A DNA stretch of 63,998 nucleotides, the filler included, from Jimgerdemannia flammicorona (lineage: Eukaryota): NCBI GenBank assembly GCA_003990765.1. It is 3 parts of 3 records of this genome, joined end to end, with 100 filler letters (N's around TTAATTAATTAA, not from the genome) between each part and the next. Parts side by side here need not be neighbours in the genome. Positions count along the whole stretch, not along the records: positions 1 to 21,349 come from RBNJ01001474.1; positions 21,450 to 42,794 come from RBNJ01001475.1; positions 42,895 to 63,998 come from RBNJ01001530.1. One strand, written 5' to 3'. The notes under the pieces were generated by a model. It searched no databases, was not told the DNA's origin, and worked only from the letters and a program-made list of their open reading frames with translations. Below, piece after piece: positions 169-55,037 of this stretch (position 1 is the first letter of the stretch; each line of letters opens with the position of its first letter). A program made the translations under genes and the position numbers.

Positions 169-2090
169 AGTCAATATGAAGTCATGGAACACAAGATTTA
201 TATAAACAGAATCTTACCAATCAGGACTAAATGCATATATACTGAGCACCAAGATGCATTGAACAGAGAACTAAAACAAATAACAACCATAACTTCTAAA
301 CATACACAACCATAACCACTGAGATCTACAACCACATCCGTGCTGACATTTGGAATGCCATTGTCAACTGAGCCACACCTCCTCTACCCCTCATGAATAT
401 CCATAGCCTAACACCCCTCTACTTCATGGAAGCCTGATGGAATGCCCTGAACATGCTTAATGAGGTCCACCAAATTGGACAAATCTCAAGCTACTACTAG
501 ATTGGCTGCCTCCTAGAAGACATGGTCAAACACCACCATGATATGGACATTACCCAGATGTCTCAACACCAGAAGCTCATTGCCCACAAACATAGAGAAC
601 TCTTCTATGAGTATAGCACCTTTATTCTCTGCCTCTGAGTTACTATCAGTAAAATGGTTGCTACTCTATCCTATGGTCAAATCAATGACATGATATAAGA
701 ACTCAACCACAAGTACCTTGAGTACATCCAGACCACAGACAGAACCTTCCCATACCCTGATGACTACATCTTGCAAATGCCCCAAGTTGGATATACTATG
801 AAGGATGTCTATGATATAATCTGGTTCGATGAAGATGAAGCAGAAGATAATGATCTCTCTAACACTGATATGACCTCAAGCCAAGAATTCCTGCCAACAC
901 TAATCACACTACCAACCTTGCTGATGAACTTACAACAGTTTATAACCACCTATGAGACTTATTGGGACAATGACCACTGGCACAAATATCAACCCACATT
1001 CACCCCCAATTACTTCAACTACAATGAAGAGACTGGAGAACACAACCTGTACCTCCAGACAACCCTCGAGATCGAACCAACCACTCCACTACCCAAGTAT
1101 GAGTGACATGAACCACAGCCACCAGCATACTACAACCCTGCAACTCATAGTGCTGTAACCTATAGGAGGTATATAGATAGCGAATCCGATAAAAGCGAAG
1201 ACAATGTACCACTCCTTTGCCCCCCAATACCTTATTCAGCATATGAGACAGATGATGCTATCCTGTGGGATGGTGATGAAGTTCCAATATATTATTATCT
1301 CAGCAAACAAGGAGAAGTAATCTGTGAACCACTCTTTCTAGATAACTACTTCATCAGAGATGATGTCATCAATGGTGATGTCATCAAAGACTACACAGAT
1401 AGTGTCTAAATCTATAAATAGCTTAGCAGTCATAGTATAGTTAGATTAACCTTATATGACATGACTGTGAACTAACTCAGCAGTCAGACAATCTCTTGAC
1501 ATATCAGATCACTCTTGTACTATGACTGCATTCTGACTCAGTAAGGCACTTAGTGCTACATCCATATTTAGCATAGTCCAGATAGCCCCTCACTAGTATA
1601 AATACCCCCTCCCCCAGACCTCAGAATCTCAGACTTGAAAGACTTGAACACACAAGAACATTCCTGAATACTTCCCCACAATATCCCTTTATACAACTAC
1701 TCCTAGTATAGTAATATCATAAATAGTGAATAAACCTATTTAATAACCCACAAACTACTCTTAAGTAAATCTACTTCCCATTAGGCCCACTCCTAACCCC
1801 ATCATGAAATTTCCTAATTGGGTATTGTCTGTAGCGATATACCAATTCAACTAAGCTGGTCTTAGTTTCTTGAACTTCCTGAAATATGGAAAATCCTGAA
1901 CATCTAGAACTAGTCTGAAAAAGGACTTTGATTGAGATGTCAATCTAATTTTGAAATCAATAAGCATAGAGAATGTACTCTATACGAAATTGATCTTGAC
2001 CATAGAAAACAGTCTTCCAGAATATTCAGAACTTCCAGAAAACCCTTCCAGAACTATGTAATGGTTACCCTAAAAAGCAACCCTCTTATA
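165..2090 (+). repeat. LTR-A copy 1, lacking its first ~140 bp; no PBS follows, so it is a 3' or solo LTR
   Basis: Colinear with 49317-51376 and 53653-55713. It ends CCCTCTTATA (CA>TA). TATA motif GTATAAATACCCC at ~1596. Confidence 0.9.
312..1409 (+). pseudogene. LTR-A-internal accessory ORF (365 aa), copy 1
   Basis: 1098 nt, the same length as the other three copies. The start is ATG>ATA and the stops derive from CGA/CAG/CAA. Confidence 0.85.
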
Positions 2091-2299
2091 ATTAGAAACA
2101 GTATAAATTTATTTAGAAATTTACTTGTTAGTCACTACTAATTTATTTTAAATTTTATTTTGTTTTATTTTTTAATAAAAACCTATACTTGATCCCAGAC
2201 TTAAGCTAGAATATTATTTATTACATAATTGGGAAGATATTTGAATTGAAGAGACCAAAGATAAACTTTGTATAGTTTATAATAAAAACTATACTCCTT

Positions 2300-2961
2300 T
2301 ATCTAGATTAATTAATTGAATAAGTTCTAAAGATTATAAAGAAGTAGAAGATAATATCAATGCTATACTATATAAATATATATTTAATAAAAGATAAAAA
2401 CTGATAACAAATTCTGAGCAAGAGATAGATACTTATTTGAAAAGTAAAACTATTAAATTTCAAGTAAGAGTTGATATATTATTTTGATAGTAAGTGAGTT
2501 AGAAATTTATATTCAAATTAGATCAATTCAAAATATTATTTGAGTTTCTCTAATTGATTTAATTGATTGGAAATATTAGGACCATAGTAAAGATTTCTCA
2601 AATTTAGCAAAAATAGCATATAACTACTTAGCTATCCTAGTAACAAGTACTCTAATTGAGAGAGTTTTTTCAAGTAGTAAAGATCTTAAGTAGCTAAAAG
2701 AGGTACTTTAGACTTTAAAACAATTCATAAATATATGTATTTAAAGATATGTATAACAATTAATCTAATATTCCAATAATAATAGCTAATCCCAAATCTT
2801 AAAATATAGTTAAATTTTGAAATACTAAATAAATATAATACTTGGGTATCATATTATACTAGTATGACTCAAAATTTATAAATATACTATATCCAAATAT
2901 AATTTCTAAATATATATCTGATTGTTATATTTGAATATGATTTTTGTCATTTCTAGCCCTA
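2300..2961 (+). mobile_element. Heavily decayed hAT relic: C-terminal dimerisation domain and probable right end
   Basis: ~2550-2755 reads WK..HSKDFSNLAKIAYNYLAILVTSTLIERVFSS..RGTL, the hATC motif. It ends ...CTAGCCCTA (TAGGGCT-type terminus). Left boundary is approximate. Confidence 0.7.
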
Positions 2962-4264: not shown

Positions 4265-5816
4265 TGTTATGTAGTGGTCGCTGAGTCCTTCAAATATGCC
4301 AGATTCTCTTCAAGGTATATCTCTTAGACTAACTCAAGTTTGTTATAAGCAAGTTCTTATTGGGGTGCCTTCCCAATATCTTATAGTCCTCAAACTTCTT
4401 ATCTTTAACTGTCTTGTTATCTCTTAAATTGCTTACAAGAAAGTATGTATAAGTGAAACCAGAACTGACTTTATTTCAAAGGAAATAAGAGGAGTATTTA
4501 TACAAAATATAATTCAATGGTTGCTAAGATATAAAGCTAAATATAAATTCTAATAACTAAAATAAAATGCCAGAACAGAAAAAACTGCTAAGTTCCAGGG
4601 TCAGTATTGATGGTTGTATAGGTTCAGGATACTGGTATAATTTGGTGTTATATCAAATGCCAGTGCTGGCATTATTCAGTGTTACATCAAATGCTGATGC
4701 TGGCATTATTCAGTATAACCAAGGGACTTAGAGCAGAATGTTCAGAACTATGGAGGCTTTATCTTTATCATCAGAGGTCAGGATATCTTCAAAGGAGATG
4801 AGGTCTGCAAATTTATCTTTGTTGTTGTTGTCATTATATAGATAGCACATCTCACGTGCTTTGATGTTGCACAGGATGACATCATTGCTGATGACATCAT
4901 TGCTGATGACATCATCATGTTCAGTAGCAGGGAAATTGAGAACAAGGAGATCTGAAGCTCTCCAGTCTATGAGGTTCTCTTCCACAAAATAGGAAACAAA
5001 TGTGGAGTCTTTGGGAGGTCTAATCTGGATGCTTGGGCCTTAGAATATTGAGATCAATCCTTGCAGAAATTGGTCTGGGTTGTCCTGGAGGATGGGGTGT
5101 CAGAAGTCTTCTACTTCATCACTATTGAGGGTGATAGTAGACTGGGCTTCTGTAGCCACTCTGACTTCTAGTACATTGATACAGCAGGATGACAGATCTC
5201 TGAAATCTGAGACTCTAACATACTCCAAGTTGGGGATCGACTATAATGTATGCCTGAAGATCTGGTGGATCTTTTTAGCTATCCTTGCCTCATGTATATC
5301 CATGGGAGTGGTATCTTGAGGACTAACTCCCAGCAGAGGAGATTTCTTATTTCATACTCCTGCCATATTTGGAGGCATTCAGTAGCAATGGTGATCCTTG
5401 TTTCCATTTCACAGCAGTAGAGAATATAGTGATAAGAGTCACCAGTACCCAGGTTAATACTAAGAGTCCTTCTTGAGTGTGTCCTCATGGCTCTTCTGAT
5501 GTCTTGGAACATCCTTTCATTGACTGAGATACCTTGGTGGTTTCTTGACCTTGAGGTTTGGCAGGCAGCAGGCATTTTGTTTGTGGTAAGTCTTTGAGCT
5601 ATTTTGAGATTAGTGGGTCTTATTGGTTGCTGCTACTGCAGTTCCTTGATCCTTCTTTTATATTCCTCAAGATATCATACTGTGGTCACAATGACTCACA
5701 GTTGGTCATCATTGCTTATCTCATATGCTGTATGATCTTCTTGTGCTCTGATCTGGTGGCTTGCAAGGAAAGACTATCTCCTGTGCTGATATCATCATTC
5801 TGGGATCACTGTTATA
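4265..5816 (-). repeat. 3' LTR of B1 (~1.55 kb, inferred)
   Basis: The outer end matches the 5' LTR stub next to the PBS at 42784. The inner end is inferred from PPT AGGAGGAAGA plus TGTAAC, whose context matches the family C PPT. Confidence 0.65.
4728..5575 (-). pseudogene. LTR-B-internal accessory ORF (~280 aa), copy 1
   Basis: ORF fragments 5279-5575 and 4728-4985. Homologous to the LTR-A ORF. Confidence 0.7.
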
Positions 5817-7646: not shown

Positions 7647-9712
7647 TGTAAGAGGGTTACTTTTTAGAGTAACCATTATGTAGTTCTGGAAAGGTTTTCT
7701 GGATATTCTGGATGTTCTAGAAGACTGTTTTCTTATGGTCAAGATCAATTTTGTATGGAGTATATTCTCTATGCTTATTGATTTCAAGTTCAGGTTGATG
7801 TCTTAACCAAAGTCCTTTTTCGGACTAGTTCTGGATGTTCAGAATTTTCCGTATTTCAGGAAGTTCAAGAAACTAAGACCAGCTTAGTTGAATTGGCATA
7901 TCGCTGCAGACAATACCCAATTAGGAAATTTCATGATGGGGTTAGGAGTAGGACCTAATGGGGAGCGAATTTACTTCAGAGTGGTTTGTGAGTTATTAAA
8001 TAGGTTTATTCGCTATTCATGATATTGCTATACTAGGAGTAGTTGTTTGAAGGGATGGGGAAGTGTTCAGGAATGTTCTTGTGTGTTCAAGTCTGAGATT
8101 CTGAGGTCTGGGAGAGGGGGTATTTATACTAGTGAGGGGCTACATACATATCTGGACTATACTAGATGTAGATGTAGTACTAAGTGCTTTGCTGAGTCGG
8201 GATGCAGTCACGTAGTACAAGTATGATCTGACATATCAAGAGATTGTCTGACTGCTGAGTCAGTTCACAGTCATGTCATATAAGGCTAATCTAACTATAC
8301 TATGACTGCTTAGACTATTTATAGGTTTAGGCACTGTCTGGGTAGTTCTCGATGATATCACCATCAATTGTATCATCTCTGATGAAGTAGTCATCTAGGA
8401 AGAGTGGTTCGCAGATTACTTCTCCTTATTCGCTAAGATAATAATACATTGGAACTTCATCTCCATCCCACAAGATGGCATCATTAGTCTCATATGCTGG
8501 GTAAGGTGTTGGTGGACAAAGGAGGGGTACATTGTCTTCACTTTCATTAGTTTCACTATCTGCATACCTTCTATAGGTTATGGCACTATGAGTCACAGGG
8601 TTGTAGTGAGCTGGTGGCTATGGTTCATGTCACTCGTACTTGGGTGGTGGAGTGGTTGGTTCAATCTCGAGGGTTGTCTGGAGGTACAGGTTGTATTCTC
8701 CAGTCTCTTCATTGTAGTTGAAGTAATCGGGGGTGAACACAGGTTGGTATTCATGCCAGTAGTCATTGTCCCAATAAGTCTCGTAGGCTGTTATGAATTG
8801 TTGTAAGTTCATTGGCAAGGTTAGTGGTGTGATCAGGGTTGGCAGAAATTCTTGGCTAGAGGTTATGTCAGCATCAGAGGGATTATTGTCTTCTGCTTTA
8901 TCTTCATTGAAGTGGATTATATTATAGATATCCTTCATGGCATATCCAACTTGGGGCATTTGCAGGATATGATCATTGGGGTGTGGGAAGGTTCTGTCTG
9001 TAGTTTTGATGTACTCGAGATACTTGTGGTTGAGTTCTTGTATCATGTCATTGATTTGGCCATAGGACAGAGTAGTGACCATTTCGCTGGTGGTAACTCA
9101 GAGGCAGGGAATAATAGTACTGTACTTGTAGAAGAGTTCTCAATATTTACAGGCGATGAGCTTCTGGTGTTGGGACATCTGGGTAATGTCTGTATCATGG
9201 TGGTGCTTGATCATATCTTCTAGGAGGCAGCCGATCTGGTAGTAACTTGAGATTTGTCCAATTCGGTGGGCCTCACTAAGCATGTTCAGAGCATTCCATT
9301 GGGGTTCCACAAAGTAGAGGAGTGCTAGGCTATGGATATTCATGAGGGGCAGAGGGGGTGTGGCTCCATTGACAATGGTATTCCAAATGTCAGCATGGAT
9401 ATAGGTATAGATCTTGGTGGTCATGTTTGTGTGTTTGGAAGTTGTGGTTATTGTTTGTTTTGATTCTCTAATTTGATATGTCTTGGTGCTCAGTATATAT
9501 GTATTTGATCCTAATTGGTAAGATTCTGTTTATGTAAATCTTGTGTTCTGTGACTTCGTATTGACTCAGCTTTGTATGCTGTGACTTCAGTTTGACTCAG
9601 CTTCATGATCAAGCAGGTGATTTCCAGATTTGTTCAGAGGTCGCATGTGATTTCAGTGGTTTGTTCAGAGGGTGACATGTAATTTTGGTGGCTTGGAGGT
9701 TGTGCACTTACA
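7647..9712 (-). mobile_element. Complete solo LTR-A (2066 bp) inserted in the RNase H region of B1
   Basis: TGTAAG...CTTACA termini. 5-bp TSD TATAG/CATAG; the uninterrupted site ACTCATAGTTC is seen at ~38910. Confidence 0.95.
8327..9424 (-). pseudogene. LTR-A-internal accessory ORF, copy 2
   Basis: ATG at 9424 to TAA at 8327, 1098 nt, with a few transition-derived stops. Confidence 0.85.
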
Positions 9713-10879
9713 CATAGTTCTGTTCTGCTCTGTGGGTACCTCAGCTTGCATAGGAGATGACATATTCATGTCTATCTTTCTTCTGAGCTAAGACTGCTCC
9801 AAGTTCTATAGCACTTGCATCTATCTGCAGGATGAATTCTAGGTTCCAATCTGGTCTTCTGAGGATAGATACTTGGGTCAATCTGGTCTTGAGTTCATTG
9901 AAGGTTTCTTGGTATTCCTTGGTCTATTCAAATTTGGTCTCCTTCTTCAATAGCTCATAGATAGGTACTGCAATATTAGAGTATCCTTTGATGAACCTTC
10001 TGTAGTAGCTGGCCAGTCCAAGGAAGACATAGACTTCTATGGTTGTTCTGGGTCTTGGGTAGGTTACAACAGCCTCAATCTTCATAGAGTCTGTGTGGAT
10101 TCTAGTCTGATTGATGAGGTGTCCTAGGTAGGTGATTTCCTGAGCTGCAAACTTGCATTTCTTGGACTTGATGTAAAGGCCATACTCCTTGAGCTTCTTG
10201 AGGGCTAGCTGTATGTGATTGATATGTTTCCATGCAGTATTGCTGAAGACTCTATTCATTATTTACTAAAAACTTACTGGGACATTGCATATTCCAAATA
10301 GCATTCGCAGGTAGATATAGGTGTAATGAAGACTGATTTCTTACCGGCATCTTGAGTGAGACTAATCTGATGGAAGCCTGAGAACAGATCCAGGGTGGTG
10401 TAGTATTTGGCTTCACTTCTAAAAGTGGTGAGGATTTCTTGAATATTTGGCAAGGGCTGCCTATCCTTCTTGGTGATGGTATTGAGCTTCCTGTAGTCAA
10501 TACAGAGTCTTGGTGCAAACTCTCCAGGCTTGCTTCCTTTCTTTGGGGCAAAGATAATAGGTGAGGCCTAGGGGCTGATAGCTTGCTTGATAATTCTGGC
10601 TTCTTCCATTTCCTTGAGTTCTGCTTGCAGCCATTCTCTATAGGTGGTCTGACTTTCTGGTAGATGGGCTTGGTATCACCAGTGTCAACTTTGTGGTAGT
10701 ACTTAGGTTCTTGATTGTGGATATCTCTGAAGTCTGTAGCAAGTACTCCTTTATTCTGGTGCAGAATCTTGAGAAGTTGTTCTTCCAGGGGGAAGTTTTC
10801 TCCAATAGTGTATGTGTGCTTATTCTGGTCCTTGCCTTTCTTATGCTTAAGTTCAGTAATCTTGGTAGTGGCATAGGCT

Positions 10880-11300
10880 CCTCTTCCAGTAGATCCAAAG
10901 CCTTGTTCTCCTCTCTTAGTCTTGATGAGTTTGATGGCTTCTATGATCTTGGGCTTCTTGATTTCATAGATCAGTATCTGGTCAATCCTGTCATACTTCT
11001 TGACTTCGAATGGAGTAGTGGGGTTGTGATTCCTGACTATGAGAAAGATCTTGCCAGTGTAATCAGGATTAATTACTCCTCCTTCAACTGAGATTTTGCT
11101 TTTGGCCAGACTGCTCCTAGTCTTGATAATTCCAGCATGGTTTTCTGATAGCTTGACTCCAATTCCAGTGCTAAGTAGGGTAGTAGTCTGTGGTTTGAGG
11201 GTAGTATCTTGAATGCTGGCAAAGTCCATTCCTATGGCTCCTTCAGTCTTATATTCTGGGATCTTGGCTTTGGGGTGAAACTTCTTGACCTTGAGGGTGA
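10880..11300 (-). pseudogene. dUTPase domain of B1 pol
   Basis: AIGMDF, TRSSLA, GGVINPDYTG, DRI.Q and RGEQGFGSTG correspond to dUTPase motifs 1-5. Confidence 0.92.
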
Positions 11301-12799
11301 TGTCTGATTCTTGTTCCTCTTTATTATCACTGTCAGCCTGAAGCTCTGGGGGCTGGTCATCTTCTTCAGCTTTCTTTTTTGCTTTGGTGGCTTCTTGCTT
11401 GTGTTTCTGTTGGTGGATTTTCCTGACTTCACTAATATAGGACCAGCAGTCATTCAGGTGTTCAGAGTAGTACATCCTAGTACCATAGGGACATTTTCCT
11501 TGAGGGGTATAGCTATTGATGATCTTGTTGTACCACTGCTCATCTGTGAGCTTGGGTATCTTGTTTTTGTTCTTGTTCACCAAGTGCATAAAGACCTCTG
11601 TATCCTCTTTATCTCTTTTCTCTATGTCTGGTAGAACTTCTTTGTAGACATTGATAGAGACTCATATCTTTCTTCCTCTATAGTTGATCTGCATCTTCTG
11701 GGCATTGAGGTCAATGATGGCCTTGGCCTTGTAAAGCCATTGGTTGCTAATGAGGATGTCATAGTTGGTGGTACTTATAATAATCACATCTACTGAGATA
11801 GTAGCTCCTCCTATTTTGATGGAGACTTCTCGGATTTTGCCAAGGGGGGTAGCTCGTGTACCATCTGCTGTAACATAGACCATCTTGGCGAACTCTTCAA
11901 TATCCCAACCTAGGCAGTCAATTGCCTTCTTGCTCATAAGGCATCCTCCAGTACTGGTATCAATGATGGTATCAAAGATACAGTCTTCAATCTGACATGA
12001 GGTATAGGCTGATGTCTTATGCTGGTCTTTGGATTCTTCACCTAAGTTTTCAGATTCTTCCTATGCATTATGAGCTTCTACAATCTTGTACTCTTGATTC
12101 TTGGCAGTAGTTGTAAGTCCTACTCTTAACTGCTGTCTGAAGGCAGGGACTTTGGCTAGCTGTCCAAAGGTAGCATTGACCTTCTGTTCCTTGAGATTCT
12201 TGTAGATATCATACTGATGGATCTTGGTCTTGCACAGCTTCTGTTCCTTCTTACTTTTGCTTTCTTCTGAGACTGGAGTTATGTCTTTAATGATTTGGTG
12301 AGCAGCTTCATCTAACTCCATATCTTGATCAATCTCCTCAGGTTGGGTCTTACTTTGAATAGTGACAGCTGGGGTCTTCTTTGGTCTTCCAACTGGCTTG
12401 CTGTTGCTCTTCTTATCATAGAGCTTGGACTGGGTTCTGGTACCTTCAGTAGCAGGGTAGAATTTGAGCTCCTTGTAGTATTCTTCATCATTAGTGTCAC
12501 CAATCTCCTCAATGACTACTGCATTGGTTTGTTCTCTAGTTCTGCTAGCATTGCTTGGTTGGGCTTTGTGTCTTGTTTTGATCATACAATTCTTTGCATA
12601 GTGGCCTTCTTCTCCACATCTGAAGCATGTGATATTGTATTCTTCTATAGTAGCTGCAAATCTCTACACTGGTCTTCTGTTAGCACTTCAGACTTCTCTA
12701 ACAACATCACCAAGGTGTACAGTTATCTTGGCGAACTGCTTGGTGAGTTCTTCTACTGGGTCAGCTTTGGCTGCCTTGGGTAGTGCTCCAAATGAGTCA

Positions 12800-23097: not shown

Positions 23098-23569
23098 TGT
23101 GATGGTATAGCCAGATTTGGAAGAAGGAAATAGTGAACAGACACTTGATCACACCCAGTCCCAAAGTAGTATAGCCACATAGTTAGCAGTCCTCGATTCT
23201 GCCATTTGCTAAATATTTTGCAAAGTGTGAGATTGAGCTTCTCGATTTAGTATAGCATTTTGCAACTGATGAAATATTTTGCAAAGTGTTAAATGACTCA
23301 TAACTTAGCCATGTAACCCAGTAACCATCTCATAGCTAGTATGTAAACTTATATAAATAACCCAGTATCTTTGAGTGAATAAACCTCAGATTGAAATAGT
23401 TCAAAGCAAAAGAGATAGCAAAGGAACTAGTAAGCCTGCAGGCAGATACACTTCGAACTCACCCACCCTCTCCTGCAACTTCAAGAGACTCTGCGAGAGT
23501 CAGAACAGTCAAGTTTTCAAGATACAGAAATCTGATATACTTTCAAGAGTAAGTGTCCGCTATGTTACA
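23098..23569 (+). repeat. 5' LTR of C
   Basis: TGTGATGG...GTTACA, a direct repeat of 29350-29817. Confidence 0.95.
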
Positions 23570-23683
23570 ACTTGGTGCCCATTGGCTGGTAATTCAAGAT
23601 GAATCCCTCACTTTCAAGCTGAACAATGAACAACCACCACTACCCGAACAACCACATAAACTGAGCCCCAATACCCAGACAAG

Positions 23684-29312: not shown

Positions 29313-29349
29313 ATGCTTCAGAGATGAGATCATCTATTCAGAAGGAAGT

Positions 29350-32394: not shown

Positions 32395-32398
<4 letters not shown>

Positions 32399-32465
<67 letters not shown>

Positions 32466-34747: not shown

Positions 34748-36022
34748 TTATATTTTTAATGAGTTATTATATTTCAAAAAATAGAGTTTGAATCAGACTC
34801 TCAATTTAATTTGAATTTAATTTGATTTAAATTAAATCTTAGTAATCTGATATAATATTGTAAATTTTGTAGAATTCTTTAATAAGTAGTAAGTTGGTAA
34901 ATTGGGTAGGATTTCTTAATAAGTAGTAAGTTGATAAATTTGATAGATAATCCAGATAATACAGATTCTTTTAAATTAGTAAATAACTTAAAAATAGTAG
35001 ACTTCTCTTCTTGACTAATAAAGTTATATTAATGACTACTTTATTTATATAAATAGATTCACTATAAAGGTATATCTTATATATATTAGACTAGCTTTAT
35101 GAGATAGACTTCTTTATATCAGAAAGTAGACCAAAGTGAAAATAAGACAAAGTTTATAATTTCTTTATAGTAGCTCATTAGTAGGTATATCTCTTAAGTA
35201 TTATAATTTTTCCTAAATTAAGTGGCTTTTGACAGATATTTCTCCTAAGTATATCAGATAATTAGCTTTTTGCTTTTGAACTTTTTGAACTGAGATTTAT
35301 TCACTCTTATCTCTAGAGATATTTTATATAGTTATAGTTATTATCTAATTTCTATATAGCTAACTATAGAATATATAGTAATACTATTTAGAGAAGAGAA
35401 TGACTAAGTGTATCTACTGAGTATAGATATGTCTAGTGGGCATAGATATATTTAATAAGTATAAATATATCTAATGAGTATAAGTATATTCTTAGAATAT
35501 AGATTAATAAATCTGATTTAGTATCTTTAGCTAATTATAAGTAGTATCATGTAGTGGTCACTGAGTCCTTCAAATATACCAGATTCTCTTCAAGATGTAT
35601 CTCTTAGACTAACTCAAGTTTGTTATAAGTAAGTTCTTATTGAAGCGCCTTTCCAAGGTCTTATAGTCCTCAAACTTCTTATCTTTAACTGTCTTGTTAT
35701 CTCTTAGATTACTTGCAAGGAAGTGTGTGTATTACACTGAGTTGACTGACTTTATTTCAGAGGAAATAAGAGGGGTATTTATACAAAATATAATTCAATA
35801 GTTGCTAAGATATAAAGCTATATATAAATTCCAATAACTAAAACTACTAAGTTTCAGGGTCGGTACTGATAGTTGTATAGGTTCAGGATACTGGCATTAT
35901 TTAGTATCACATCAAAATACTGCTGCTGGAATAATTTTGTGTTACCTCAGAATACCAGTGCTGGCATTATCCAGTGTTACATGAGAATATCAGTGCTGGC
36001 ATTATCCAGTGTTACAAAGAAC

Positions 36023-36845
36023 TTAGAGCAGAAAGTTCAGGACCATGGGGGCTTCATCCTCATCATCATCATCACTGAAGGAGATGAGATCTGTAAATTA
36101 ATCATTTTCATATATTTCGTCACATATCTCACATATGTCAATATCACATGGGATGACATTATCACCAATGATGTCATCATGTTCAGCTATGGTAGGGAAA
36201 TCAGGAACAAGATCTGGAGCTCTCCAGTCTATGAGGTTCTCTTCTACAAAATAGGAAACAAATGTGGGGTCTTGGAGAGGTCTAACCTAGATGCTTGGGC
36301 CTTGGAATACTGAGATCAATTCTTGCAGAAATTGGTCTGGGTTGTTCTGAAGGATAGGGTGCCAGAAGTCTTCTACTTCTTCACTGTTGAGAGTGATAGT
36401 GAACTGGGCTTCTGTAGCCACCCTGACTTCTATGGTGGGATGACAGGTCTCTGAAGTCTGAGACTCTAACATACTCCAAGTTGGGGATCAACCATAGTGC
36501 ATGCCTGAAGATCTGATGGATCTTCTTAGCTGTTCTTGTTTTACGTATATCCATAGGAGTGGCATCTTGTAGCTCTTGGGTGCTGGCCTGTGGGAACTTC
36601 TGGTAGAGGAGGTTTCCTATTTTGTACTCCTGCCACATTTGGAGGCATTCAGTAGCAATGGTAATCCTTGTTTCCATTTCATGGTGGTAGAGAATAAAGT
36701 GATAAGGGTCTATAGTACCTAGGTTGACACTAGGAGTCCTTCTTGAGCAGGTCCCCATGACTCTTCTGATGTCTTGGAACATCTTTTCCTCAACTGAGAT
36801 ACCTTGGTGATTCCTTGACCTTGAGGTTTGGTAGGCAGCAGACAT
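36023..36845 (-). pseudogene. LTR-B-internal accessory ORF, copy 2
   Basis: A 154-aa open stretch, MSAA..QEYKIGNLL..TAKKIHQIF..IPNL, then a small-deletion frameshift and an acidic tail. Confidence 0.75.
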
Positions 36846-37449
36846 TTTATTTGTAGTAAGTCTTTGAGCTATTTTGAGATTGGTGGTTTTTGTTGGTTGC
36901 TGCTACTGCAGTTTCTTGATCTTTCTTTTACATTCTTCAGGATGCTTATACTGTAGTCACAATGACTCACAGTTGGTCATCATTGCTCATCTCATATGCC
37001 ATATGATCTCCTTGTGCTCTAATCTGGTGGCTTATAAGGAAAGGCTGTCTCCTGTACTGATGTCATCATTCTGGAGTTACTGTTACATCTTCCTCCTGAA
37101 TAAGGATCTTCCTGAGCATCCTTATTCATTGGTCTAGTTCTGAAAAATTTGCTGATCCTATAACCTCTGGCAAGGGGTCGAAAAGTGGTGTTTATGGGCT
37201 GGCATCTTCTCTTTGTATTTGGCATGATAGTGAAGGGTTACTCCCTTTATATAGAGCAAGGGCCTGATTCTGATCTTGACCAATCAGTTGACAGTTTGAA
37301 CTCTTCTGACTTCGAAAGTCTCATGGATGAGTAGTTGCCAGTGCTATATCCCTTAGAGAATGGTCCAGACAGATAGCCTGCTGGTTATAGAATATGCTGT
37401 TATGATTTGCAGACTAGAACCTTGTGGGTGATCATCACGTTTGCTTCTC

Positions 37450-42663: not shown

Positions 42664-42794
42664 CTTGTCTTGAATTCTTACAGAGGTGACTCTTGTAGTC
42701 AGGGTAGTTGTTGTGGGGGTTGTTCATTTTTCAGCTTGAAAGTGAGGGATTTGTCTTGAATCACCAGCCAATGGGCACCAAGTTGTCATATAGT

Positions 42795-42894
42795 NNNNNN
42801 NNNNNNNNNNNNNNNNNNNNNNNNNNNNNNNNNNNNNNTTAATTAATTAANNNNNNNNNNNNNNNNNNNNNNNNNNNNNNNNNNNNNNNNNNNN
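42795..42894. other. Assembly spacer
   Basis: N44-TTAATTAATTAA-N44. Confidence 0.97.
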
Positions 42895-45713: not shown

Positions 45714-46511
45714 TTAGAGCAGAATATTCAGGATCATGGGGGCTTCATCATTATTATCATCATCACTGAAGGAGATGAGATCTACGAATTCATTGTTTTC
45801 ACATGCTTCAATGTCATGTGAGATGATGTCATTGCCAATAATGTCATCATGTTCGGCAGGGAAATCAGGGGCTCTCCAATCTATGAGATTCTCTTCTACA
45901 AAATAAGGATAAATGTGGGGTCTTGGAGAGGTCTAACCTAGATGCTTGGGCCTTGGAATACTGAGATCAATCCTTACAGAAATTGGTCTGGGTTGTCCTG
46001 AAGGATGGGATGCCAGAAGTCTTCTACTTTATCGCTGTTGAGGGTGATAGTAGACTGAGCTTCTGTGGCTACCCTGGCTTCTAGCACATTGATATGGTGG
46101 GATGACAGGTCTCTGAAGTCTGAGACTCTAATATATTCCAAGTTGGAGATTGAACATAGTGCATGCCTGAAGATCTGATGGATCTTCTTAGCTATCCTTG
46201 TTTCACATATATCTATGGGAGTAGTATGTATCTTGTAGCTCTTGAGTACTGGCCTGTGGAAACTCCCAGCAGAAGAGGTTTCCTATTTTGTACTCTTGCT
46301 ACATTTGGAGGCATTCAGTAGCAATGGTGATCCTTGTTTCCATTTCATAGTGATAGAGAATAAAGTGATAGGGATCTGCAGTACTCAGGTTGACACTAGG
46401 AGTCCTTCTTGTGCAGATCCCCATGACTCTTCTGATGTCTTGGAACATCCTTTCTTCAACTGAGGTACCTTAGTGATTCCTTGACCTTGAGGTTTGGTGG
46501 GCAGCAGACAT
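45714..46511 (-). pseudogene. LTR-B-internal accessory ORF, copy 3
   Basis: ATG at 46511, colinear with copies 1 and 2. Confidence 0.7.
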
Positions 46512-47029: not shown

Positions 47030-48885
47030 ACTTGGTAGCAGCAGTTTACAATTTAATTCCACTTCAAGACGCTTCCTCATCCTGCTACAAACCCTTCTGA
47101 GAATTCCTACAAGTTGGTATAAAGCCCAACCTCTGAACTGGAATTTATCCTGAACCATCTGACAATCTGGAGAGAATTGAACCTGACATATAAGAACAAT
47201 TTGACCTCCATACCTACAACAAGTAGGACAAACTTTATTCAAAGAAAGAAATACTCCAGTTAAATCAGCAAATAGGCAAAACCCTATTCACTGAACTCCT
47301 TACTCTACACCCAGCAAGTCAAGACAAAGAAGGTCTTATTGAAGCCTTCTTTACCCTTCTCAACAAGAGTTTTATCAGCTCTATAAATCCAAGTGACCTA
47401 GGACAACCAGCAGCAGTCTTTCTAGCCTTAGTCTCTCATGAAGCCCAAGTCTCTGTAGCCAAGTGGCTCAACTCTACTGACTTTCACCATACCAGGACCA
47501 AGACTGCACTATACTACTGATTCCAGAACAGTAAGGCCTGCCATATTCTTAAAGAAGAAGCAAGAGAAACCCTTCATCAACTACCTGACCCGGAACCAGA
47601 AACAGGCCCTACTACAGCTCTACCTGAATCTGAAACCAATACCAAACCAGAACTTGATTTTGAATTAAGTCCATCTGAAATCAGATATATAACTAATTCT
47701 GTCTACTTTGATGCTGAGCAAACCCAATTACACAGGGACCAAACCGAAGAGGAGGAAGAATATCTCAGTGAATTTGATCCCGGATACACCACCGAAGGAG
47801 ATGTACCTTCATTAGGCCAGAACATACCTATACAGCAACAAACAGCTATCTATCAAGCCCTTACTCTAGACCCACAACTACTACTTCAGCAACTTATACA
47901 GATCCAAAGAACACTCTCACACACTGCAACAGCACCAGACATAGCCACACTCTTATTTGACAACATCTTCCACTATCATGGTCTTCCTAAGATCATTGTT
48001 AGTGACCGAGATCCGAAATTCACCAGCCATTTTTGGAAAGCCCTCCATGCATACCTTGGAATGAAACTCACACTATCTACAGCCTTTCATCCTGAAACTG
48101 ATGGCCAAACTGAAAGAATGAACTGAACTCTAGAACAAATGCTAAGGAACTATGTTTCCTACAGACAAGATGATTGGCATGAACACCTCACTGCAGTCAA
48201 GTTTGTCTATAACAACAGCAAGCAAGCCTCTCTTGGAATGACCCCATTCTTTGCCAATACTGGACAAAACCCAAACACCCCTTTGACACTCATCTGAACT
48301 ACTGAAGAACTCTCCACAGTTGAAGCTGTTGAAGAATTCCTACTCTGAATGTGTAATCTAAGTCAGATTGCAATTGAGAATTTATTGCAAGCTCAAGAAC
48401 AACAGTCATAGTATGTTAACCAACACTGCCGAGAAGAAATCTTTGATATTGGAGAAAAAGTTCTACTAGATATTTGAGGATACCGAGTTGACAACCTCAA
48501 GCACAGACCATCTACAAAGTTGAACAGCAAGTTCATTGGACCATTCGAAGTTATCACACAAGTCTCTCCTACTTCTTACAAATTGGTGCTATCAGACACC
48601 ATTAAAATTCACCCAGTCTTTAATGTTCAACATCTCAAGCAATATAATAACAACAATAATGAGCTATTTCCAAACTGAACCATCAAACCACCTGCACCTG
48701 TCATTATTAATGACCAAGAAGAGTACAAAGTTGAACAAATCCTCAACAAACATGACCACAAGAACCACCCAGAGTACCTTGTTAAATGGAAAGATTATCT
48801 GATCCATGATGCAACCTGAGAACTCAAGACTAATCTCCAGAATGCCACTGACTTAGTTCAGGAATATGATTTCTTGAATAACTGA
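47030..48885 (+). pseudogene. In-frame fusion of 5' ORF with partial integrase and chromodomain, unit 1
   Basis: [70 protein letters not shown]. No PR, RT or RH. Confidence 0.9.
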
Positions 48886-49603
48886 AATCCGAATACTCTG
48901 ATACCTATCAGTATATACTATATATTACCCTCCTGAACATTATAATTATTATGAATGAAATCAAGAACTCAGAAAGTTAAGACATAAGAATACCAACTCT
49001 CTGGAAAAAATAGCAAAACTGAAAGCAAGCCTATTCTCCTCATACCACTGGTGGGAAACAAGGCATAGACATTTAAGAAGATTCTTTAGAGAAAATTCTC
49101 CAGCAGTAAATGACATCAGAATCACTTCCGGCACATAGCATCAAACACATGACCCTTAAATGTATGAATCCAATGCATTAGGCAACTGTACTATGAGCAT
49201 GCCACTTTCTGAAAAAATGGACTTTACTGGACTTTTGACCTCTCAAATGGTGTAACAACACTAGAACAAAATTAGAAGGCCCTGACAAGGATGTTGAAAG
49301 CTAAGAAGGGGAGAGTTATAAGTGCACAACCTCCAAGCCACAGAAATCACATGTCACCCTCTGAACAAGCCACTGAAATTACATACAACCTCTGAACAAA
49401 TCTGGAAATCACCTGCTCGATCACGAAGCTGAGTCAAACCAAAGTCACAGCATATAAAGCTGAGTCAATATGAAGTCATGGAATACAAGATTCATACAAA
49501 CAGAATCTTACCAATTAGGACCAAATGCATATATACTGAGCACCGAGACGCATCGAAACAGAGAATCAAAACAAATAACAAACACAACTTCCAAATATAT
49601 AAT

Positions 49604-50701
49604 ATGACTATCAAGATCTATAATCACATCTGCGCTGACATTTGGAATGCCATTGTCAACTGAGCCACACCCCCTCTACCCCTCATGAATATCTATAGTC
49701 TAGCACTCCTTTACTTTATGGAAGCCTGATGGAATGCCCTGAACATGCTTAATGAGGTCCACCAGATCGGACAAATCTCAAGCTACTACCAGATCAGCTG
49801 CCTCCTAGAAGATATGGTTGAATACCATCATGATACAGATATTATCCAGATGTCCCAACACCAGAAACTCATTGCCTGCAAACACAGGGAACTCTTCTAT
49901 GAGTATAGTACCTTTATTTCCCATCTTCGAGTTATTACCAGCAAAATGGTTGCTACCCTATCCTATGGCCAAATCGATGACATGATACAAGAACTCAACC
50001 ACAAGTATCTTGAGTACATTGAAATCATAGATAGAACCTTCCCACACCCTGATGACCATATCCTACAAATGTCTCAAGTCAGATACACTATGAAGAATAT
50101 CTACAATATAATCCGATTTGATTAAAATAAAGCAGAAGACAATGATCCCTCCAATGCTGACATGATCTCAAGCCAAGGATCTCTACCAACCCTGATCATG
50201 CCGCCAACCTTGCTGATGAACTTACAATAGTTCATAACTGTATATGAGACTTATTGGGACAATGACCACTGGCACGAATACCAACCTATGTTCACCCCCA
50301 ATTACTTCAACTATAATGAAGAGACCAGAGAACACAACCTATACCTCCAGACAACCCTCAAGATCAAACCAACCACTCCACCACCCAAGTATGAGCGACA
50401 TAAACCACAGCCACCAGCTTACTACAATCCCATGACTCATAGTGCTGTAACCTACAGAAGGTATACAGACAGCAAATCTGATAAAAGTGAAGATGATGTA
50501 CCCCTCCTTTGCTCACCAATGCCCTACCCAGCATACGAGACAGATGATGCTATCCTATGGGATGGTGACAAAGTTCCAATATATTACTATCTCAGTGAAT
50601 AAGGAGAAGTAATCCACGAGCCACTCTTTCTAGATGACTACTTCATCAGAGATGATGCAATTGATGGTGATGTCATCGAAGACTACTCAGACAGTATCTA
50701 A
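49604..50701 (+). pseudogene. LTR-A-internal accessory ORF, copy 3
   Basis: 1098 nt from ATG to TAA. Confidence 0.85.
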
Positions 50702-51376
50702 ACCTATAAATAGCTTTGCAGTCATAGTATAGTTAGATTAACCTTGTATGACGTAACTGTGAACAGACTCAGCAGTCAGATGATCTCTTGACATATCAGA
50801 TCACACTTGAACTACATGACTACATTCTGACTCAGCAAGGCACCTAGTGCTACATCCATATTTAGCATAGTCCAGATAGCCCCTCACTAGTATAAATACC
50901 CCCTCCCCCAGATCTCAGAATCTCAGACTCGAATACATAAGAACATTCCTGAATACTTCTCTATAATATCTCTTCATACAACTACTCCTAGTATAGTAAT
51001 ATCATAAATAGCAAATAAACCTATTAATAACCCACAAACTACTCTTAAGTAAATCTACTCCCCATTAGGTCCCACTCCTAACTCTGTTATAAAATTGCCT
51101 AATTGGGTATTGTCTGCAGTGATATGCCAATTCAACTAAGCTGGTCTTAGTTTCTTGAACTTCCTGAAATATGGAAAATCCTGAACATCCAGAACTAGTC
51201 CGAAAAAGGACTTTGGTTGAGACATCAACCTGATCTTGAAATCAATAAGTATAGAGGACATACTCCATACAAAATTGATCTTGACCATAAGAAAACAGTC
51301 TTCCAGAACATCCAGAACTTCCAGAAAACTCTTTCAGAACTACATAACAGTTATCCTAAAAAGCAACCCTCTTACA

Positions 51377-53232
51377 ACTTGGTAGCAGCAGTTTACAATT
51401 TAATTCTACTTCAAGATGCTTCCTCATCCTGCTACAAACTCTTCTGAGAATTCCTACAAGTTGGTATAAAGCCCAATCTCTGAACTGGAATTTATTCTAA
51501 ACCATCTGACAATCTGGAGAGAATTGAACCTGACATATAAGGACAACTTGACCTCCATACCTGCAACAAGTAGGACAAACTTCATTCAAAGAAAGAAATA
51601 CTCTAGTTAAATCAGCAAATAGGTGAAACCCTATTCACCGAACTCCTTGCTCTACACCCAGCAAGTCAAGATGAAGAAGGTCTTATCGAAGCCTTCTTTA
51701 CCCTTTTCAACAAGAGTTTTGTCAGCTCTACAAATCCGAGTGACCTAGGACAACCAGCAGCAGTCTTTCTAGCCTTAGTCTCTCATAAAGCCCAAGCCTC
51801 TGTAGCCAAGTGGCTCAACTCTACTGACTTTCACCATACCAGGACCAAGACTGCACTATACTACCGATTCCAGAACAGCAAGGCCCACCATATTCTTAAA
51901 GAAGAAGCAAGAGAAACCCTTCATCAACTATCTGACCTGGAACTAGAAGCAGGCCCTGCTACAGCTCTATCTGAATCTGAAATCAATACCGAACCAGAAC
52001 TTGATTTTGAATTAAGTCCATCTGAAATCAGATATATAACTGATTCTGTCTACTTTGATGCCGAGCAAACCCAATTACACAGGGACCAAACCAAAGAGGA
52101 GGAAGAGTATCTCAGTGAATTCAATCCTGAATATACTACTGAAGGAGATGTACCTCCATCAGGCCAGAACACACCTACACAGCAACAAACAGCTATCTAT
52201 CAAGCCCTTACTCCAGACTCACAACTACTACTCCAGCAACTTATACAGACCCAAAGAATACCCTCACACACTGCAACAGCACCAGACATAGCCACACTCT
52301 TGTTTGACAACATCTTTCACTATCATGGTCTTCCTAAGATCATTGTTAGTGACTGAGATCTGAAATTCACCAGCCATTTTTGGAAAGCCCTCCATACATA
52401 CCTTGGAATGAAACTCGCACTATCTACAGCCTTTCACCCTAAAACTGATAGCCAAACTGAAAGAATGAACCAAACTCTGGAACAAATACTAAGGAACTAT
52501 GTTTCCTACAGATAAGATAATTGGCATGAACACCTCACTGCAGTCGAGTTTGCCTATAACAACAGCAAGCAAGCCTCTCTTGGAATGACTCCATTCTTTG
52601 CCAACACTGGACAAAACCCAAACACCCCTTTGACACTCATCTGAACTACTGAAGAACTCTCCACAGTCGAAGCTGTTGAAGAATTCCTACTCCAAATACA
52701 TAATCTAAGTCAGATCGCAATTGAGAATTTATCGCAAGCTCAAGAACAACAGTCACAGTATGTTAACCAACACTGCTGAGAAGAAATCTTTGATATTGAA
52801 GAAAAAGTTCTACTAGACATCCAAGGATACCGAGTTGACAATCTCAAGTACAGACCATTTACAAAGTTGAACAGCAAGTTCATTGGACCATTCGAAGTCA
52901 TCATACAAGTCTCTCCTACTTTCTACAAATTGGTGCTACCAGACACCATTAAAATTCACTCAGTCTTCAATGTTCAATGTCTCAAGTGATATAATGACAA
53001 TGACGATGAGCTATTCCCAAACCAAACCACCAAACCACCTGCACCTGTCATTATTAATGACCAAGAAGAGTACAAAGTTGAACAAATCCTCAACAAATGT
53101 GGCCACAAGAACCACCCAGAGTACCTTGTTAAATGGAAAGATTACCTGATCCATGATGCAACCTGGGAACCCAAGACTAATCTCCAGAATGCCACTGACT
53201 TAGTTCAGAAATATGATTCCTTGAATAACTGA
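51377..53232 (+). pseudogene. 5' ORF/integrase/chromodomain fusion, unit 2
   Basis: Same junction and frame as unit 1. Confidence 0.9.
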
Positions 53233-53939
53233 AATCTGAATACTCCGATACCTATCAGTATATACTATATATTACCCTCCTGAACATTATAATTATCATG
53301 AACGAAATTAAGAACTCAGCAAGTTAAGATATAAGAATGGAAAAAATAGCAAAACTGAAAGCAAGTCTATTCTCCCCATACCACTGGTGGGAAACGAGAT
53401 GTAGACATTTAAGAAGATTCTTTAGAGAAAATTCTCCAGCAGTGAATGATGTCAGAATTACTTCTGGCATATGGCATCGAACATACAACCCTTTAACGTG
53501 TGAATCCAACATGTTAGGCAACTGTACTACAAGCATGTCACTTTCTGAAAAAATGAACTTTACCAGACTTTTGACCTCTCAAATGGTATAACAACACTAG
53601 AACAAAATTAGAAGGCCCCGACAAGGACATCGAAAGCTAAGAAGGGGAGAGTTGTAAGCACACAACCTCCAAGCCACAGAAATCACATGTCACCCCCTGA
53701 ACAAGCTACTGAAATCACACGCGACCTCCAAACAAATCTGGAAATCACCTGCTCGATCATGAAGCTGAGTCAAACTAAAGTCACAGTATACAAAGCTGAG
53801 TCAATATGAAGTCACAGAATACAAGATTCATATAAACAAAATCTTACCAATCAGGACCAAATGCATATATACCGAGCACTGAGATACATCAAAACAGAGA
53901 ACCAAAACAAATAACAAACATAACTTCCAAACACACAAT

Positions 53940-55037
53940 ATGACCACTGAGATCTACAACTACATCTGCACTGACATTTGTAATGCCATTGTCAACCAAG
54001 CCACACCCTCTCTACCCCTCATGAATATCCATAGCCTAGCACCCCTTTACTTCATGGAAGCCCAATGGAATGCCCTGAACATGCTTAACAAGGCCCACCG
54101 AATTGGACAAATCTCAAGCTACTATCAGATCAGCTGCCTCCTGGAAGATATGGTTGAACACCATCATGATACAGATATTACCCAGATGTCCCAATACCAG
54201 AAACTCATCGCCTGCAAATACAGAGAACTCTTCTATGAGTATAGCATCTTTATTCCCCACCTTTGAGTTACTACCAGTGAAATGGTTGCTACTCTATCCT
54301 ATGGCCAAATCGATGATATGATACAAGAACTCAACTACAAGTATCTTGAGTACATTGAAATCATAGACAGAACCTTCCCACACCCTGATGACCATATCCT
54401 ACAAATGCCTCAAGTTGGATATACTATGAAGAATATCTATAATATAATCCGATTTGATAAAGATGAAGTAGAAGACAATGATCCCTCTGATGCCGACATG
54501 ACCTCAAGCCAAGGATCTCTACCAACCCTGATCATGCCACCAACCTTGCCAATGAACTTACAACAGTTCATAATCACATATGAGACTTATTGGGACAATG
54601 ACCACTGGTATGAATACTAATCTGTATTCACCCCCAATTACTTCAACTATAATGAAGAGACCAGAGAACACAACCTGTACCTCTAGACAACCCTCGAGAT
54701 CAAACCAACTACTCTACCACCTGAGTATGAGCGACATAAACCACAGCCACCAGCTTACTACAATCTCATGACTCATAGTGCTGTAATCTACAGAAGATAT
54801 GCAGACAGCGAATCCGATAAAAGTAAAGATGATGCACCCCTCCTTCACCCACCAATGCTCTACCCAGCATATGAGACAGATAATGCTATCATATGGGATG
54901 GCGATGAAGTCCCAATGTATTACTATCTCAGTGAACAAGGAGAAGTAATCCACGAGCCACTCTTCCTAGATGACTACTTCATCAGAGATGATGCAATTGA
55001 TGGTAATATCATCAAAGACTACCCAGACAGTGTCTAA
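53940..55037 (+). pseudogene. LTR-A-internal accessory ORF, copy 4
   Basis: 1098 nt with three transition stops. Confidence 0.85.

Follow-up and report, generated by a model that had tools for sequence, protein, structure and literature searches.

An accessory gene 3′ of pol in Ty3/Gypsy elements of Jimgerdemannia flammicorona, inside the LTR of one family and probably of a second

The window analysed here (63,998 nt of Jimgerdemannia flammicorona DNA, three contigs joined end to end) is made of nested, transition-decayed copies of Ty3/Gypsy elements. They fall into three families, A, B and C, each with one sense-strand ORF 3′ of pol. In family A this ORF has 365 codons and lies wholly inside a proven 2.06-kb LTR, 288 nt from the LTR start. 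The features of family A are:

312..1409 (+), A ORF in the LTR at the window start; start codon mutated to ATA, 6 internal stops
7647..9712 (-), solo A LTR within RNase H of B copy 1; flanks CTATG/CTATA
8327..9424 (-), A ORF carried by the solo LTR within B copy 1; 5 internal stops
47037..49318 (+), A internal region, a deletion derivative; weak rve match, chromodomain by homology with the second unit
49319..51376 (+), A LTR; next come the PBS TTGGTAGCAGCAG and the second internal region (2.28 kb)
49604..50701 (+), A ORF in the middle LTR; 5 internal stops
52990..53229 (+), A chromodomain (PF00385, E 3e-15)
53653..55713 (+), A LTR, 2061 bp, TGTAAG...TTACA; PPT AAGAAGGGGAGAG just upstream
53940..55037 (+), A ORF of the tandem array, in its 3′ LTR; 365 codons and a stop, 3 internal stops

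The A LTR has TG..CA ends, is preceded by a PPT and followed by a PBS, and also occurs as a solo copy flanked by a 5-bp target duplication; the identical LTR–PBS junction was found in sequencing run X3. Eight sequencing runs contain matching sequence in small shares (0.06–0.20), with no RNA run listed among them. Since the whole ORF is within the LTR, solo LTRs carry it too. In 4/4 copies CCAAT and TATATA boxes precede the A ATG by 96 and 77 alignment columns, and an AATAAA is located in the LTR 330 alignment columns past the ORF stop. No PR, RT or RH was found in the internal region at 47037..49318, and a 249-aa ORF of the A internal region (51607–52353) has no Pfam match and no similarity to the C-type IN. 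Family A is classed as a chromovirus, the class resting on the chromodomain found downstream of a weak rve match, at the IN C-terminus, in a copy without RT.

In family B the ORF has about 271 codons in intact relatives and starts ∼590 nt past pol. The window holds the following B features:

4731..5575 (-), B ORF, copy 1; split, two frames
10255..11661 (-), dUTPase-bearing pol segment of B copy 1 (PF00692, E 1e-25 to 1e-27)
35527..37437 (-), putative B LTR of copy 2; 3′ end fixed, start at 37437 or at purine runs 37214, 37097 or 36929
36026..36845 (-), B ORF, copy 2; open 154-codon N-terminal part (36381–36845), then a frameshift; intact relatives have 271 aa
39898..41103 and 57344..57874, dUTPase pol segments (PF00692) of other B copies
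45717..46511 (-), B ORF, copy 3; split across frames

Every candidate start of the putative B LTR (1.6–1.9 kb) is upstream of the ORF. The 11 nt before the B PBS (42784–42794) match the B LTR end, and one metagenome contig from X4 joins this end to the PBS. No second LTR copy of B was found in the window; the 5′ LTR is missing from every B copy there, since the contig break falls 11 nt inside that LTR. The PPT-like runs, the 11-nt match and the metagenome contig suggest that the B PPT is upstream of the gene, which would place the gene inside the B LTR. A first-pass annotation of this DNA had put the gene in the LTR of both families; this holds for A, by the LTR ends, PPT, PBS and duplicated solo copy, and is probable for B.

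The C copy is laid out differently, with the gene between IN and the PPT, as had been described:

23097..29818 (+), C element; 474-bp LTRs at 23097–23570 and 29349–29818, PPT AGAAGGAAG at 29340
25448..26794 (+), dUTPase pol segment (PF00692)
28851..29312 (+), C ORF3; 153 codons and a stop, 2 internal stops; overlaps the pol end by ∼40 nt in another frame

The 153-codon C ORF3 starts in the end of pol/IN and stops before the PPT. L001, an intact C-type element, has ORF3 open and overlapping the IN end, and in a third lineage, present on a metagenome contig (L002), the gene for protein P0021 directly follows IN as C ORF3 does. The overlap of ORF3 start and pol end is 40–60 nt in C, L001 and L002, and a sense ORF 3′ of IN is found across the B/C/P0021 family.

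Pol and PBS separate A from the other two families, in agreement with the first-pass annotation. In B, C and L001 a dUTPase domain (E 1e-25 to 1e-28) stands between PR and RT, while A has the chromodomain; the PBS of A is unlike that of B and C, and a C-type pol/IN query (tblastn, window) matched B and C and left the A internal region blank. B and C are sister dUTPase lineages, with 56–75% pol identity to one reference element.

That annotation had also quoted peptides of the proposed family, and fuzzy searching of the window in six frames located all 12 fragments:

345–671 (+), 49637–49963 (+), 53973–54299 (+) and 9221–9391 (-), A peptides
5190–5503 (-), 36441–36773 (-) and 46103–46439 (-), B peptides
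29043–29228 (+), C peptides

The quoted strings are consensus sequences; single copies differ from them by 0 to 7 residues per fragment and by in-frame stops.

All copies in the window have stops or frameshifts, and gene status is read here from DNA sequence; these points would suit chance open frames in repeats. Such an origin is nevertheless highly improbable. Between the window copy and L001, C ORF3 has pN 0.189 and pS 0.72, and its pN/pS of 0.26 equals that of integrase (0.15/0.58 and 0.12/0.45 for two IN segments of the same pair). Across four copies the A ORF aligns over 1098 columns without a gap, against 14 gap runs in the remaining 1013 columns of the LTR, and its second codon positions changed 2–3.5 times less often than its third. 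Intact homologues come from several sources (for B, P0005 with 271 aa; for C, P0008 and 7 others with 153 aa), and L001 and L002 have the gene at the same position. The sole outside relative of A, P0007 (247 aa), corresponds to the C-terminal part of A only and is without the N-terminal domain. Judged by these comparisons the extra ORFs are real genes, purifying selection acting on them as strongly as on integrase, and the unnamed accessory protein family proposed at the outset does exist.

Its membership is clear for B, C and P0021. B and C proteins match in BLASTP (E 0.001) and their profiles in hhalign (E 4e-5 over 102 columns, 1e-4 over 114 columns), with probabilities of only 58–69% from shallow profiles (Neff 1.2–1.7). 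The C profile retrieved P0021 with E 9e-5 among 1.84 billion proteins, and P0021 matches B over 98 residues (BLASTP E 8e-5). By these similarities the genes of B, C and P0021/L002 are homologues, with the P0021 lineage bridging B and C. The C-profile search also returned P0020 and P0022 (E 6.5e-7 and 2e-4; 6 and 4 stretches); these are repeat proteins and were set aside as repeat-driven. Nucleotide alignment of the B and C LTRs gave no usable similarity (scores 43–55 versus shuffle maxima of 45–49). Because B and C are sister lineages, vertical descent suffices for their sharing of the gene. It is explained by common descent, and the earlier reading of a mobile module is not supported for these two; that reading hinges wholly on A, and exchange between lineages would be called for only if the A link were proven.

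The shared B/C/P0021 domain comprises ∼90 residues and is all-helical in the model. Its motifs are, in order, E-F/W-Q-E-Y-x-h-G-x-h-L, h-A-K/R-+-h-h-x-h-F and D-F. C-terminal to it is an acidic, aromatic-rich tail of variable length, strong in B (residues 141–271, net charge -26) and P0021 (126–165, -14); the A protein also ends in such a tail (126–365, -37). The acidic tails reported for A and B are confirmed, and the architecture of helical domain plus tail is supported. The C tail is short (net -3) and the acidic tail is thus not universal. The B tail has hydrophobic-acidic-serine runs, and residues 1–60 of B are arginine-rich (13 basic, 5 acidic), a stretch absent from C, P0021 and A. With C relatives alone the AlphaFold model was too poor for use (pLDDT 50); once B and P0021 joined the alignment, pLDDT rose to 67 (79–85 in the core blocks) and pTM from 0.34 to 0.59, which speaks for B–C homology. 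Signal peptides and transmembrane segments were not detected in A, B, C or P0021 (highest Kyte-Doolittle 19-residue mean 1.14). An env-like ORF3 was rejected on this hydrophobicity, with no segment above 1.14, and on the all-helical, soluble model.

Whether A belongs to this family is less easily settled. As the B/C profile grew, the hhalign E-value of A fell through 0.15, 0.017, 0.0036 and 0.002, the range 0.002–0.017 carrying probabilities of only 3–14%, with the A profile built from four near-identical decayed copies. None of 150 column shuffles attained the real score. With the merged HMM, a six-frame search of the window placed the four A copies next after B/C (E 0.012–0.34) in a common register, the best unrelated match being E 1.3. 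Thus the initial claim of one family in A, B and C is sound for B–C (hhalign E 4e-5) and only borderline for A (hhalign E 0.002–0.004, HMM E 0.012). The gap-free A–B alignment on which it had leaned is present as a 43-mer, with 10/43 identities in real sequences rather than 12, and 10/1000 shuffles reach its score.

On this evidence, and given that in A too a helical domain precedes an acidic tail and that A and B share the unusual site in a roughly 2-kb LTR, we lean towards the N-terminal 125 residues of the 365-codon A gene being a diverged copy of the B/C domain. It could quite well be, on the other hand, that the family is B, C and P0021 only and that the A LTR gene is unrelated and independently acquired, its likeness coming from chance and a shared style (helical, I/L/Y/Q-rich, acidic tail). 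BLASTP gave no aligned match of A to B and only E 0.077 for A versus C; among 56 pairs (4 A copies against 14 B/C/P0021 proteins) none was significant, the best having E 0.07. A B-only profile HMM found no A copy at E<10, and the Y-x-h-G motif of A fell in different registers in two hhalign runs. There is also selection bias, A having been picked in the first place for looking similar. What independent acquisition would leave to coincidence is that the top non-B/C match of the merged HMM is A, in all four copies and one register, that the shuffles fall short and that the E-value improves with profile diversity.

Database searches gave leads at most. Against Pfam the window ORFs had, at E<=10, only a chance-level DUF3410 row (E 0.12), and P0005, P0008, P0021, P0007 and L001 ORF3 had no match at E<=0.01. 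The resemblance to DUF3102/DUF1016_N suggested earlier is accordingly not seen in either search; as HMMER filters lose most matches above E ∼0.1, a very remote relation may still exist. A PDB sequence search with the family profile listed 4 rows, all at E>=0.19, Foldseek versus PDB gave nothing at E<=0.001, and the best Z of a wide VIA-align search was 6.3, with ParB/KorB rows at 4.9, all within noise for helical models. In the ESM Atlas the best score was 0.83 for B and 0.95 for C, the latter to unnamed small helical clusters only; named rows for C (PF01818 Translat_reg and PF01785 Closter_coat, each 100% of members; DUF6192, 56%, and HTH_3, 15% of members) are leads only. Metagenomes scanned with the A domain yielded 183 pattern matches, none of them a relative.

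Taken as a whole, the observations are best explained by a real extra gene, homologous in B, C and P0021, probably also in A, whose product would regulate the element itself; to this reading we assign a probability of about 0.6. Its last part is tentative and less likely than not. As proposed, the protein would be soluble and nuclear and would regulate expression of its own element, the helical domain binding nucleic acid or a host factor and the acidic/aromatic tail recruiting host machinery as retroviral transactivators do; it would be translated from a subgenomic or LTR-internal transcript rather than from the gag-pol message. The transactivator-like features seen in sequence and model are two, the acidic tails and the helical domain.

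Other functions can be set beside self-regulation. An RNA-handling factor for export, stability or packaging of unspliced element RNA, in the manner of Rev/Rex or of CERV for Cer1, is rather unlikely. CERV is an LTR-retrotransposon accessory protein made from a spliced mRNA and needed for gRNA export (PMC10309623). The arginine-rich B N-terminus suits such a role, and so does the overlap of ORF start and pol end, which fits expression from a separate message. Yet Pfam and PDB sequence searches gave no similarity to any RNA-binding family, C, P0021 and A are without the arginine-rich stretch, and long acidic tails are atypical of RNA binders. We consider it more doubtful still that the tail binds host chromatin or a silencing factor, steering integration or blunting the silencing of new copies. 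The heavy transition decay of the copies is of the type left by genome-defence or methylation-linked mutation, so counter-defence would be under selection, and the B tails offer hydrophobic-acidic-serine runs; but the protein shows no homology to known suppressors, targeting in A is already served by a chromodomain, and all copies here are mutated nonetheless.

Self-regulation could also be taken further, to the ∼2-kb A and B LTRs as self-contained genes encoding a Tas-like activator or anti-silencing product, which we regard as improbable in its full extent. The CCAAT and TATATA boxes would then serve as the A promoter and AATAAA as a poly(A) signal provided by the LTR itself. Solo LTRs, along with gutted non-autonomous elements like the A array, would go on making the factor available in trans; the gene would have moved between a chromovirus and a dUTPase lineage; and it would have entered or left the LTR by a mere shift of the PPT.

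Extra genes are known in LTR retrotransposons, few with a function assigned. Retroviral accessory genes in, or running into, the U3 of the 3′ LTR include Tas/Bet of foamy viruses, Sag of MMTV and Nef of HIV; Tas combines a DNA-binding part and an acidic activation part, as does the protein in our model. Like these genes of vertebrate retroviruses, the gene described here lies 3′ of pol/env and reaches the LTR; unlike them, the A ORF is entirely in the LTR, hence its presence in solo LTRs. No retroviral protein was listed in PDB sequence and fold searches with the family. To our knowledge, sense genes wholly inside an LTR are familiar only from retroviruses. Our literature search found no paper on this protein family, nor one on a fungal-type Ty3/Gypsy element with a sense ORF in its LTR.

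Among retrotransposons, the aORF/ORF3 of Vicient and Casacuberta (2020; PMC7264820) is similar: it is sense-oriented, conserved and 3′ of pol, most copies of a family have it, and its role is dispensable for the core gag-pol cycle. The sense aORFs described there are mostly env-like, unlike the protein here, which is without a hydrophobic segment, and two of our three families have the ORF in the LTR (B by inference); a search of that review for ‘in/within/inside the LTR’ returned nothing. Rodriguez, Kenefick and Arkhipova (2017; PMC5408684) describe single ORF3 types that recur across LTR-retrotransposon lineages of bdelloids, some with dUTPase, and read this as modular gene sharing. Those ORF3s are recognisable as enzymes or envelope proteins (GDSL lipase, DEDDy exonuclease, paramyxovirus-like env), while the present family matches nothing known, and sharing across lineages, reported for rotifers, is here only possible, for A versus B/C. 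A further parallel is CERV of Caenorhabditis elegans Cer1 (Sun et al. 2023; PMC10309623), an accessory protein of a Ty3/Gypsy-type element that is nuclear, novel and confined to its lineage and has its own message, and whose role in gRNA export was shown by experiment; no sequence relation of CERV to our family was found.

The family is selected, lineage-restricted and without known relatives. With the gene in the LTR of one family, and probably of a second, every solo LTR once carried a copy, and such LTRs, if so, are to be read as genes and not as promoters only. The protein is a concrete candidate for control by an element of its own expression, or for a response to host genome defence. If A shares the domain, modules would have been exchanged between distant Ty3/Gypsy lineages outside rotifers.

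The brtn gene of Boty/BcGypsy1 is antisense. With the ‘add. ORF’ that Novikova et al. (2010; PMC2864245) depict, without a known function, in certain fungal Gypsy elements, which we compare by its description, and with Retrosat2 ORF0, brtn of Botrytis (PMC8365987) belongs, as these sources present them, to the extra ORFs of fungal or plant Ty3/Gypsy elements, like the genes here. ORF0 is upstream of gag and so differs in position; it evolves much faster than pol (PMC3485330), and the ORF3 described here is likewise faster-evolving than pol.

On sequence comparison, the extra ORFs (ORF3) that follow pol in sense orientation in families B and C form one protein family, and the extra ORFs of all three families, A, B and C, are real genes. 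The peptides quoted for them in the first-pass annotation are all present in the window, and its observation, which had placed the three ORFs in a single unnamed accessory protein family, is largely right.

Self-alignment and Pfam scans (207 stop-to-stop frames, each of at least 70 residues) revealed that nested Ty3/Gypsy elements make up nearly the whole window. Two linkers (44 N, TTAATTAATTAA, 44 N) at 21350–21449 and 42795–42894 show that it is composed of three contigs in end-to-end order, with the second break falling 11 nt into the 5′ LTR of B.

Elements and extra ORFs in the window (LTR size range in A 2058–2066 bp)
49319–51376, plus strand: A LTR
53653–55713, plus strand: A LTR
7647–9712, minus strand: A solo LTR, flanks CTATG/CTATA
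1–2088, plus strand: further A LTR copy, ending at 2088
LTR positions 288–1385: A ORF, 365 codons, in all four copies, with 3–6 internal stops each
4269–12784, continuing at 19290–19957, minus strand: B copy 1
35527–42794, minus strand: B copy 2
45185–46997 plus 55714–58101, minus strand: B copy 3
36381–36845, minus strand: B ORF in copy 2, N-terminal 154 codons open, remainder frameshifted
23097–29818, plus strand: C element, with 474-bp LTRs
28851–29312, plus strand: C ORF, 153 codons

Families B and C share the domain order PR-dUTPase-RT-RH-IN (Pfam scans) and the PBS TTGGTGCCCATTGG, and their pol is 56–75% identical to that of L001, a metagenome contig carrying an intact C-type element; the L001 pol query gave no match in A. 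B and C are thus sisters, with A only distantly related to them. A dUTPase between PR and RT is already on record for fungal elements (PMC2864245). The A LTRs start with TGTAAG and end with TTACA, preceded by the PPT AAGAAGGGGAGAG and followed by the PBS TTGGTAGCAGCAG; the LTR-PBS junction also occurs in one contig of public sequencing run X3. In the tandem array at 47003–55713 (LTR stub, 2.28-kb internal region, LTR, internal region, LTR), which sits inside a B element with ∼1.1 kb of the B IN region gone between the two flanks, the internal region retains only a weak rve match and a chromodomain (E 3e-15). The Pfam scan found no PR, RT or RH there, and this region is a deletion derivative. 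A 249-aa open frame (51607–52353, plus strand) directly follows the A PBS; it matched nothing in Pfam, does not resemble C-type IN and may be what remains of gag.

The repeat copies of the window differ almost exclusively by transitions (173 versus 8 transversions between the two A LTRs of one array), and the same bias was seen in contigs from four public runs. In the A LTRs at 49319–51376, 53653–55713, 7647–9712 and 1–2088, C-to-T changes favour CpA, CpG and CpC (0.26–0.39 of sites) and are scarce at CpT (0.09), a signature of RIP-like or methylation-linked decay. As a result of this decay, every gene copy in the window is a pseudogene with stops. Some soil metagenome runs contain families A and B in very high abundance; in run X1, 6515 contigs were at least 80% alike to 45185–51376, most of them 90–99% alike.

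Intact relatives were found outside the window. Word-indexed searches of 5.8 billion proteins returned three relatives of the B protein (one complete, 271 aa), eight of the C protein (one complete, 153 aa) and one of the A protein, covering only the C-terminal 247 residues. In L001 the C-type pol is intact and ORF3 is open at the same overlapping position, and a second metagenome contig, L002, carries a 165-aa ORF (its product is called P0021) that is placed likewise, but behind a different IN. Between the window C copy and L001, pN and pS are 0.189 and 0.72 for ORF3 and 0.15/0.58 and 0.12/0.45 for two IN segments; the similarity of these values indicates that constraint is equal. The four copies of the A ORF align without a gap over 1098 columns, whereas the remaining 1013 columns of the LTR contain 14 gap runs; the differences between the ORF copies by codon position run like 63/23/84.

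The C ORF begins ∼40 nt upstream of the pol stop, in a frame other than that of pol, and closes ahead of the PPT at 29340. A start codon 40–60 nt inside the end of pol, in another frame, is conserved across three lineages (C, 28851–28891; L001, 4001–4044; L002, 126–187). In family B, where pol ends at about 37440, the ORF very probably lies inside an LTR of 1.6–1.9 kb, as three observations suggest: four purine runs, each followed by T(G/A), lie between the pol end and the ORF, and the stretch from the ORF to the end of the element has none; at the contig edge, the 11 nt that adjoin the PBS (42784–42794) match the 3′ end of the B element; and in one X4 contig this 3′ end is joined to the PBS. 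A second copy of the B LTR was not found in the window.

The kinship of B and C rests on several comparisons. BLASTP of B versus C gave E 0.001, and hhalign gave E 4e-5 (102 columns aligned) and 1e-4 (114 columns). When 1.84 billion representative proteins were scored with a profile built from C relatives, six matched at E≤0.001: three C relatives, P0021 (E 9e-5) and two repeat proteins, which were set aside. P0021 in turn matched B by BLASTP (E 8e-5, 98 residues). Once B, C, P0021 and L001 were combined into a single alignment, the AlphaFold pLDDT rose from 50 to 67 and the pTM from 0.34 to 0.59, with block means of 79–85 over residues 61–100.

Whether A belongs to the same family is a closer call, and we put its membership only slightly above even odds. 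As the B/C profile was diversified, the hhalign E-value against A dropped from 0.15 through 0.017 and 0.0036 to 0.002, and none of 150 column shuffles attained the real score (the reversed alignment gave E 0.16); still, the hhalign probabilities stayed at 3–14%, and two runs placed the Y-x-h-G motif differently. Searched against the window in all six frames, the merged B/C HMM placed the A copies, all four in the same register, immediately behind B and C (E 0.012, 0.081, 0.12 and 0.34), with the best unrelated match at E 1.3. Against this, a B-only profile finds nothing in A, BLASTP of the four A copies versus 14 other sequences gave no pair better than E 0.07, the A profile consists of four near-identical decayed copies, and a metagenome scan for more A domains found none. 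The gap-free 43-residue A–B match proposed in the first-pass annotation did prove to be the best diagonal; on the real sequences it has 10/43 identities, a score attained by 10 of 1000 shuffles. One family in three element families is proven for the sisters B and C, and a mobile module need not be invoked unless A is confirmed.

The predicted model of the C protein is all-helical (helices 2–22, 37–57, 60–75, 81–88, 92–105, 109–114, 120–125 and 128–151), and the ORF3 protein has no transmembrane-like segment. It has no Pfam, PDB sequence or Foldseek match and its VIA-align scores are at noise level, so the suggested likeness to DUF3102/DUF1016_N is not supported; an Atlas search returned only unnamed small helical clusters. 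Strongly acidic, aromatic-rich tails are present in B (residues 141–271, net −26), P0021 (126–165, net −14) and A (126–365, net −37); the C tail is short (net −3). An arginine-rich N-terminus is found in B alone.

A soluble helical domain with an acidic/aromatic tail would fit a regulator of the element's own expression, as would a start inside the pol end or a position in the LTR, either of which would call for a message of its own. Such self-regulation would be the most likely mechanism, as a reasoned guess. Retroviral transactivators provide one of the two closest working models for the ORF3 protein. The other is CERV, the Cer1 export factor (PMC10309623). The A LTR could be a complete transcription unit, given CCAAT and TATATA boxes 96 and 77 alignment columns upstream of the ATG and TATAAA and AATAAA motifs after the ORF stop, all in 4/4 copies; these motifs, however, turn up often in AT-rich DNA, and the copies are so similar that motif conservation carries no weight.

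Extra ORFs conserved 3′ of pol are well known from plants (PMC7264820), ORF3 types common to unrelated retroelements are documented in rotifers (PMC5408684), and fungal Gypsy elements have been drawn with unexplained ‘add. ORFs’ (PMC2864245). What is new is the protein family, together with its location within long LTRs; we found neither described in the literature searched, TE sequence libraries and the supplement of PMC2864245 lying outside that search.

Other features of the window include an insertion in B copy 1 (12785–19289) that carries a hAT C-terminal dimerisation domain (PF05699, E 7e-9) at 15479–15823 on the plus strand and a short tandem duplication near 16063–16610. A 230-aa frame that opens with ATG (20713–21405, plus strand) crosses from the end of the first contig into the linker. 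It was left out of the Pfam scan because it contains N; the shorter stop-to-stop frames that overlap it were scanned and had no match. A GC-richer repeat (0.48–0.49) at 58101–63998 and 32427–34183 has long minus-strand frames of 283, 380 and 240 aa with no Pfam matches, and a weak RVT_1 match at 59674–60006; it may be another type of retroelement.
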